From the IMG/VR virus record IMGVR_UViG_2623620505_000001: DNA of 64,000 nucleotides; one strand, given 5' to 3'. The notes below the pieces were generated by a model, which was given only the letters and a program-made list of their open reading frames with translations, did no database searches and was not told where the DNA came from. Of the stretch, positions 20,219 to 21,349 are shown piece by piece. The position numbers and the translations under genes are program-made. The stretch comes from a virus (taxonomy: Duplodnaviria > Heunggongvirae > Uroviricota > Caudoviricetes). The number at the start of each line of letters is the position of its first letter. The stretch's first letter is position 1.

Positions 20219-21349
20219 TTACACAGTATCAATGTGTCTGCTAAGGAATCTCCCGAACTGATTTGTTGACCCAAAATAGTTAGGATAAGCCTTTTTAAGA
20301 GATTTAATGTTGTTAGTGGCAAGCAGCACCGCAATTAATACTTCAGGATCCGCATCATCCTTATTAAGTTCCTGGAGGGCTTGTTCCGATTCTTTTTTCC
20401 TAAAAGGTTTCACAGAAACAAGAAACTTTCCAGTATCCTTGCCATTTTTTGTTATGGCGTTTCTCATCCTCACCAAAAAGAATCCATTATGGTTTTTGGG
20501 CAGGCTTTTCTTTAGGTTTGCATCTGATGTCAGCTTCATTGCAAATGTATATGTACTTAATTTTGAGCGAACAGATAAAGCCTCCTCCAATGTTTTAAGC
20601 TCTGTTTGATAATTTTTGATGGTTTCATCATCAAGAATACAGGCACCTTCATCATGAGCAACTAGGCATCCAGAAAGATAAAAAAATCTTCTCCACTCAG
20701 GGTGACCTTCATTAGAAGTTTTCAGCTTAATATTTTCAAGTGTATCTATTATCTCCAGACTTGTTGCCCAAGCATGTTGGAGTTCTGTTCTTAGTTGTAC
20801 TTCGATTTTAGTTTTACTCCACGGATTGTTACCGTTTTCTTCATCAAAACAACTATATGCAAGGTGAATGCCACTATATCCGCTTGGCTTTGGAGTTAAA
20901 TAGTCATATTCCTTTAAGATTTTATGCTTGGAGCGACTTTTAACTAGTCGGTCTTTTAGTTTCTTTAGTTGTTCGATGTTTCTAACTATAGCTCTACATC
21001 CGCCAATATCCTGCATTCTAGTAAGGGCTATTGCATTATTTGTTGCGCCGCCGTCAAGACTTGGACGCTCCAGTTTATCAATTATTGTGCTAAGTCTTTT
21101 TAGGCGTCTTGCAACAATAATCTTATTCTCTTTATCAACTTTTTTTGCAGCCCTATCAAGATGATTTTTCATTAGCATCAATGGATATAAATGAAGCTCG
21201 CGGAAATTTTGAATCATTTTAATTGCTTCTTCTCGCTCTGCGCCCTCACAACCATGTCTAATTTTTCTGGCTGCTTTTTCTATTTGAGATTTCGAATATT
21301 TAAGTTCGCATTTTTGGCTTTGATATACTTCACTGCCCATTACTAACAT
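20219..21349 (-). CDS. RelA/SpoT-family nucleotidyltransferase, fused toxSAS toxin-antitoxin (CapRel-like) candidate defence protein
   Basis: ORF track gives 379 aa from a TTG; first ATG at 21349 or 21340. Synthetase-domain motifs DIGGCRAIV, GYSGIHLAYS, EVQLRTELQHAWATSLE; C-terminal ~180 aa of unrelated sequence; AT-rich gene in the slot where P1 has res/mod. Confidence 0.8.
   Translation of the reverse strand: MLVMGSEVYQSQKCELKYSKSQIEKAARKIRHGCEGAEREEAIKMIQNFRELHLYPLMLMKNHLDRAAKKVDKENKIIVARRLKRLSTIIDKLERPSLDGGATNNAIALTRMQDIGGCRAIVRNIEQLKKLKDRLVKSRSKHKILKEYDYLTPKPSGYSGIHLAYSCFDEENGNNPWSKTKIEVQLRTELQHAWATSLEIIDTLENIKLKTSNEGHPEWRRFFYLSGCLVAHDEGACILDDETIKNYQTELKTLEEALSVRSKLSTYTFAMKLTSDANLKKSLPKNHNGFFLVRMRNAITKNGKDTGKFLVSVKPFRKKESEQALQELNKDDADPEVLIAVLLATNNIKSLKKAYPNYFGSTNQFGRFLSRHIDTV

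Follow-up and report, generated by a model that had tools for sequence, protein, structure and literature searches.

The RelA/SpoT-type gene between lxc and mat of a P1-like phage-plasmid encodes a protein identical to the fused toxSAS defense protein CapRelSJ46

A single gene with a RelA/SpoT-type signature lies between lxc and mat in the DNA analyzed here (64,000 nucleotides, referred to as the window), which raises the question whether its product synthesizes alarmones, stabilizes the element that carries it, or defends the host against phages. The earlier note on this DNA had compared the gene with fused toxSAS systems such as CapRel. This was the correct reading and can be narrowed to CapRelSJ46 itself, but the system was already published in 2022 and has been structurally solved. 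We are nearly certain that this is capRel and that its product is CapRelSJ46, a toxSAS-family toxin-antitoxin of type II in which toxin and antitoxin are fused into a single polypeptide and which is carried as anti-phage cargo; no observation spoke against the identity. CapRelSJ46 is the founding fused toxSAS defense protein (Zhang et al., Nature 2022, PMC9712102, cited here and below from excerpts of the article; Zhang et al., 2024, PMC11578894). The gene and its flanks are arranged as follows:

19933 to 20181, plus strand: lxc (modulator of C1), left flank, from the list of open reading frames (ORFs) and the P1/SJ46 annotation
20219 to 21340, minus strand: capRel coding sequence, 373 codons plus stop; the protein is CapRelSJ46, or SJ46 gp058
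21453 to 22094, minus strand: mat (maturation control), right flank, from the ORF list and the P1/SJ46 annotation

According to the ORF list, the minus-strand reading frame is unbroken from 20219, the first base of the stop codon on the plus strand, to a TTG at 21358, which corresponds to 379 amino acids. In-frame ATG codons are located at 21349 (376 amino acids) and 21340 (373 amino acids), and the stop codon occupies 20219-20221 on the minus strand. The ORF from 20219 to 21349 given in the earlier note is thus real, but 21349 marks an ATG in the same frame that is three codons upstream of the deposited start at 21340, which is both the start annotated in SJ46 and the start of the deposited and crystallized protein. 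Compared against every chain in the PDB, residues 7-379 of the 379-residue ORF were identical to 7ZTB_A at 373 of 373 positions (E=1.6e-250), and every residue of 9ERV_A (372 amino acids) was matched by the ORF as well. Both structures were deposited under the name 'RelA/SpoT family protein'; 7ZTB is cited as the CapRelSJ46 structure in a 2026 preprint, and a crystal structure of CapRelSJ46 complexed with Gp54 of Bas11 is contained in Zhang et al. (2024), where 9ERV is named once (PMC11578894). The translation also equals the gp058 product of Salmonella phage SJ46 (YP_009293515.1) without a single differing residue. At the DNA level, positions 19400-22200 of the window match SJ46 (KU760857 / NC_031129) end to end, and the gene is annotated there as gp058, 'RelA/SpoT family protein', at 56389-57510. 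A base-by-base comparison revealed one difference from SJ46 within the gene, at position 21305 (GAA versus GAG), which is synonymous and affects the codon of Glu residue 12.

The domain content is consistent with this identity. All three motifs highlighted in the earlier note (DIGGCRAIV, GYSGIHLAYS and EVQLRTELQHAWATSLE) are present in the translation, and the RelA/SpoT nucleotidyltransferase domain it had recognized was confirmed by a match of Pfam RelA_SpoT (PF04607) to residues 85-199 of the 379-residue form (E=3.1e-13), whose score of 50.4 bits exceeds the curated threshold of 27 bits. Judged by this score, the match is far past what chance would be expected to produce. The PADLOC candidate defense family PDC-S33 gave a nearly full-length match (E=5e-87). 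R79, R116, Y155, L280, L307 and the YXXY motif Y352-P-N-Y355 are each found at their published CapRelSJ46 positions; R79 and R116 are described as ATP-coordinating and Y155 as part of the G-loop (excerpts of PMC9712102). On this basis, the coding sequence can be divided into two parts:

20525 to 21340, minus strand: residues 1-272, toxSYNTH toxin part with RelA/SpoT nucleotidyltransferase fold, from PF04607, matches to small alarmone synthetase (SAS) structures and the residue check
20222 to 20524, minus strand: residues 273-373, antitoxin and sensor part, comprising a pseudo-zinc-finger domain and a C-terminal helix with YXXY, from the residue check and excerpts of PMC9712102

The description of about 180 amino acids of unrelated sequence following the domain holds for what follows the Pfam core; the crystal structure, however, shows toxSYNTH reaching approximately residue 272, and only residues 273-373, which are identical to those of the crystallized protein, constitute the antitoxin and sensor (excerpts of PMC9712102). 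That a separate partner gene is lacking was borne out by the flanks, which are lxc, at an intergenic distance of 37 nt from capRel, and mat, at one of 112 nt. The gene therefore combines the characteristics of the CapRel subfamily, namely a toxSYNTH domain with Y155, R79 and R116, a fused C-terminal antitoxin with YXXY, the absence of an adjacent antitoxin gene, and identity to the type member. For this copy, we directly observed the sequence identity, the domains and key residues, the arrangement as a single gene and the location between mat and lxc.

The RelA_SpoT Pfam match would also suit an ordinary small alarmone synthetase making (p)ppGpp for the phage or the host, and so would the weaker matches to the SAS structures RelQ, RelP, YwaC and YjbM in the PDB search (E 2e-7 to 2e-4, residues ~65-201 of the 379-residue form). 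Labels such as 'GTP pyrophosphokinase' and '(p)ppGpp synthetase' in database records and the annotations of SJ46 and AP026465 point in the same direction, and a 74% identical allele was read in this way by Lai and Cooper (PMC10865808). However, the identical protein was reported, once activated by a phage protein, to pyrophosphorylate tRNA and arrest translation, and the C-terminal autoinhibitory domain of CapRelSJ46 is absent from SAS enzymes (excerpts of PMC9712102). RelQ and RelP (PDB 5DEC, 6EWZ, 2BE3) have the synthetase fold in common with CapRelSJ46, but they make (p)ppGpp, contain no antitoxin or sensor domain and are not toxins. In view of the trigger-dependent tRNA pyrophosphorylation by the identical protein (excerpts of PMC9712102), we rejected the reading as a (p)ppGpp synthetase and attach practically no probability to it. 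Like CapRelSJ46, the bicistronic toxSAS systems PhRel/ATphRel of mycobacteriophage Phrann and FaRel2/ATfaRel2 possess a RelA/SpoT-type toxin that pyrophosphorylates tRNA, whereas their antitoxin is encoded by a separate gene and that of CapRelSJ46 is fused to the toxin. CapRelSJ46 is related to PhRel in its toxin region and to ATphRel in its antitoxin region (excerpts of PMC9712102).

With the protein identified as CapRelSJ46, its mode of action can be considered in the light of published work. According to the excerpts of PMC9712102, the fragment 1-272 alone is toxic and is rescued in trans by 273-373, full-length CapRelSJ46 is not toxic when a trigger is lacking, and the pseudo-zinc-finger domain at the C-terminus docks on the ATP site and thereby autoinhibits the enzyme. 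The same source reports that the major capsid protein Gp57 of SECPhi27 directly binds the C-terminal domain and is necessary and sufficient for activation, that the substitutions L280P and L307A reduce or abolish capsid binding, and that activated CapRelSJ46 pyrophosphorylates tRNAs and blocks translation, with abortive infection as the proposed outcome. Plaquing of T2, T4, T6, RB69 and SECPhi27 was lowered 10- to 1,000-fold in the presence of CapRelSJ46, and protection against Bas5 and Bas8 was described in addition (excerpts of PMC9712102). Known triggers comprise the major capsid proteins of three phages, SECPhi27, Bas5 and Bas8 (excerpts of PMC9712102), as well as the small protein Gp54 of Bas11, a second and unrelated trigger whose binding surface is overlapping but distinct (PMC11578894). 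The earlier note had stated that specificity and trigger could not be read from the sequence; this did not hold, because the protein is identical to one with experimentally determined triggers (excerpts of PMC9712102; PMC11578894), from which the trigger of this copy can be inferred. In an uninfected cell, the C-terminal pseudo-zinc-finger would fold via YXXY onto the ATP site of the toxin domain and keep the enzyme inactive. Upon infection by a sensitive phage, a newly made phage protein would bind the C-terminal region and hold the enzyme open, and the open enzyme would then move pyrophosphate from ATP to tRNAs, so that translation would stop and the infection would be aborted. Published experiments on the identical protein have thus established that it is toxic and autoinhibited, what triggers it, that it pyrophosphorylates tRNA and that it protects against phages, and the same would be expected for the copy in the window.

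Expression of the gene may depend on the DNA between capRel and mat, and the DNA on the opposite side of the gene contains an inverted repeat. Three elements were noted in the flanking DNA:

21452 to 21479, minus strand: sigma-70-like promoter candidate TTAACA-16 nt-TATAAT, matching the consensus at 11 of 12 positions
21341 to 21451, minus strand: putative 5' leader with a 7-bp hairpin at 21408-21430; minimum free energy -26.2 kcal/mol, z=-2.9 versus shuffles
20190 to 20214, no strand assigned: inverted repeat with perfect 11-bp arms, CTATGCCTGGC-TAA-GCCAGGCATAG, lying between the stop codons of the convergent genes lxc and capRel

The -10 hexamer of the promoter candidate overlaps the mat stop codon, and the candidate is located 112-139 nt upstream of the ATG; in the consensus scan, the total of promoter-like sites in the region did not exceed the shuffled expectation, and the candidate is to be read as a consensus match only. 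Its position fits the report that 100-200 bp of native upstream DNA sufficed for expression of capRelSJ46 (excerpts of PMC9712102). The text of the synthesized capRelSJ46 gBlock had no match in the supplements of PMC9712102, and we infer that the promoter site was inside the cloned fragment. Together, the promoter candidate and the hairpin in the leader of approximately 110 nt may have a regulatory role. In the lysogen, capRel is presumably expressed from the promoter-like site at 21452-21479, and this particular host is presumably protected. The inverted repeat has a folding energy of -19.5 kcal/mol (z=-4.8), and none of 200 shuffles folded equally well. The terminator scan made no call at 20190-20214 because the hairpin, although terminator-like in appearance, is not followed by a clear T-run.

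The gene had been described as swapped defense cargo in the slot that holds res/mod in P1, and this was corroborated, since the mat-lxc interval of P1 consists of res, mod and IS5 at exactly this place. The observation as such has been published: the slot corresponds to the variable region RD-1 (Venturini et al., 2019, PMC6906374; Lai and Cooper, 2024, PMC10865808). Homology to P1 breaks off at 20186, five bases past the lxc stop codon, and returns at 21498. Homology to RCS47 breaks off at 20187 and returns at 21468, and the exchanged segment therefore has a size of approximately 1.28 kb:

20188 to 21467, no strand assigned: swapped cassette of 1.28 kb, from the homology breaks versus RCS47 and P1 and the GC content

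The cassette has a GC content of 0.37 compared to 0.49 for the window, and its two 1-kb bins are the lowest in GC of the entire 64 kb. The EcoPI type III res/mod genes of P1 occupy the same slot and likewise serve in defense, but the proteins and their mechanism are unrelated to CapRelSJ46, and they take up ~6.3 kb including IS5 compared to 1.28 kb for the capRel cassette. In RCS47 the slot is empty, with 39 nt between the coding sequences of lxc and mat, while JL22 contains one ORF of 316 amino acids and Ro157c2YLVW two ORFs, for an HTH protein and a hypothetical protein.

The window represents a P1-like phage-plasmid and is not SJ46 itself. It has kept the P1 gene order with darB (2255 amino acids), ulx, lxc, mat, ref, c8 and cre. 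Whereas lxc and mat flank capRel in both elements, darB is annotated as two coding sequences in SJ46 and is intact with 2255 amino acids in the window, and from ~250 bp beyond mat SJ46 carries Tn1721 with CTX-M-27 cargo where the window continues with ref, c8 and cre. Homology to SJ46 ends abruptly at position 22311, where SJ46 has Tn1721. Between 17063 and 19099 the window differs from SJ46 at 36 positions (~1.7%), compared to one synonymous difference between 19100 and 22311. This comparison suggests that the capRel cassette was transferred recently, together with its ulx/lxc/mat flanks, by homologous recombination.

In PLSDB, the plasmids closest to the window are P1-like plasmids of E. coli with 99.6% identity (NZ_CP148447, NZ_CP031351). 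A 14-kb query around the cassette matched 820 PLSDB records, and 21 PLSDB plasmids, whose hosts are E. coli, Salmonella and Klebsiella, carried the cassette itself, 20 of them with a full-length copy that is at least 99.8% identical in every case. Thirteen of 5426 complete E. coli genomes contained the cassette, which was plasmid-borne every time. The copies in PLSDB and in the E. coli genomes match the published statement that 100% identical copies of CapRelSJ46 occur in E. coli prophages (excerpts of PMC9712102).

This exclusive occurrence on plasmids among the complete E. coli genomes, together with the location in the slot of res/mod, which Venturini et al. (PMC6906374) list among plasmid addiction systems, could be taken to mean that the main role of the gene is addiction by post-segregational killing, taking the place of the stabilizing role attributed to res/mod in P1 for a P1-like plasmid prophage, with defense being secondary. 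However, toxin and antitoxin form one polypeptide, so the antitoxin cannot decay faster than the toxin, and the untriggered full-length protein was not toxic in the experiments described in the excerpts of PMC9712102. The empty slot of RCS47 additionally indicates that maintenance does not require an insert. On account of the fused toxin and antitoxin and of the empty slot, we rejected plasmid addiction as the main role and consider it very improbable. Anti-phage defense by CapRelSJ46 is the reading that we retain.

No credible match to further defense cargo was obtained with Pfam and PADLOC in nine other ORFs from lower-GC or non-P1 stretches of the window and in mat; the only hits in these ten ORFs were Phage_lysozyme, DUF551 and SPFH/Band 7. 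The SPFH/Band 7 domain (PF01145, E=1e-30) is encoded by an ORF of 275 amino acids at 54807-55634 on the minus strand. A second region, RD-2, at approximately 6279-7397 of the window, has no counterpart in P1, which carries IS1 and isaB there, and SJ46 covers only 48% of a query spanning RD-2 (5900-8400). It contains the following ORF:

6312 to 7406, minus strand: RD-2 ORF of 364 amino acids, for which neither Pfam nor PADLOC gave a match

The RD-2 stretch recurs in phage vB_EcoM-813R1 (99.0%) and two P1 variants (96.5%), where a feature underlying the match is labeled 'terminase large subunit'.

Many P1-like plasmids contain a second allele of the gene, encoding a protein of 375 amino acids (WP_000526244.1), in the same mat-lxc slot. 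An example is plasmid pSA186_4:

8217 to 9344 of locus L003 (pSA186_4, NZ_CP022733.1), minus strand: WP_000526244.1 allele, in the same slot as 20219-21340 of the window

The relAP1 MAGE oligonucleotide of Lai and Cooper matched the WP_000526244.1 allele with one mismatch and had no match in the window; the match to this allele identifies relAP1 as a CapRel homolog. The relAP1 protein has 74% identity to CapRelSJ46, with 77% in the toxin part (residues 1-272) and 64% in the sensor part (residues 273-373), and shares slot, orientation, fused architecture and I179 with it. Its published phenotype differs from phage defense: in E. coli M114, relAP1 is the reason why blaTEM-116*, the gene for the TEM-116* beta-lactamase, is costly, and the cost disappears with I179S or null alleles (Lai and Cooper, mBio 2024, PMC10865808). 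The authors regarded the relAP1 protein as an unregulated ppGpp synthetase (PMC10865808). CapRel is not mentioned in this paper, and among the papers mentioning relAP1 in the literature searched, none made a link to CapRel. A further RelA/SpoT gene in the slot was observed in the P1-like phage vB_EcoM-673R5 (locus L004, 2345-3444, minus strand), where it is annotated as two coding sequences of 549 nt and 543 nt, which points to a disrupted copy or a sequencing frameshift of the divergent allele.

Since publications already cover the protein together with its structure, its mechanism and two trigger classes, the finding has little weight as a discovery. Its practical value lies in annotation, because records name 'RelA/SpoT family protein', 'GTP pyrophosphokinase' or '(p)ppGpp synthetase' what is actually a characterized abortive-infection defense protein. 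We give only a small chance to the idea that CapRel-type sensors in the RD-1 slot of P1 might react to other factors besides phage structural proteins. If the cost of relAP1 did result from partial triggering by a plasmid-borne resistance protein or the stress that it causes, CapRelSJ46 could shape which resistance plasmids are tolerated; for the CapRelSJ46 allele of the window, the evidence is neutral with respect to such an effect. The link between relAP1 and CapRel could nevertheless redirect the mechanistic reading of the published fitness cost of the beta-lactamase.
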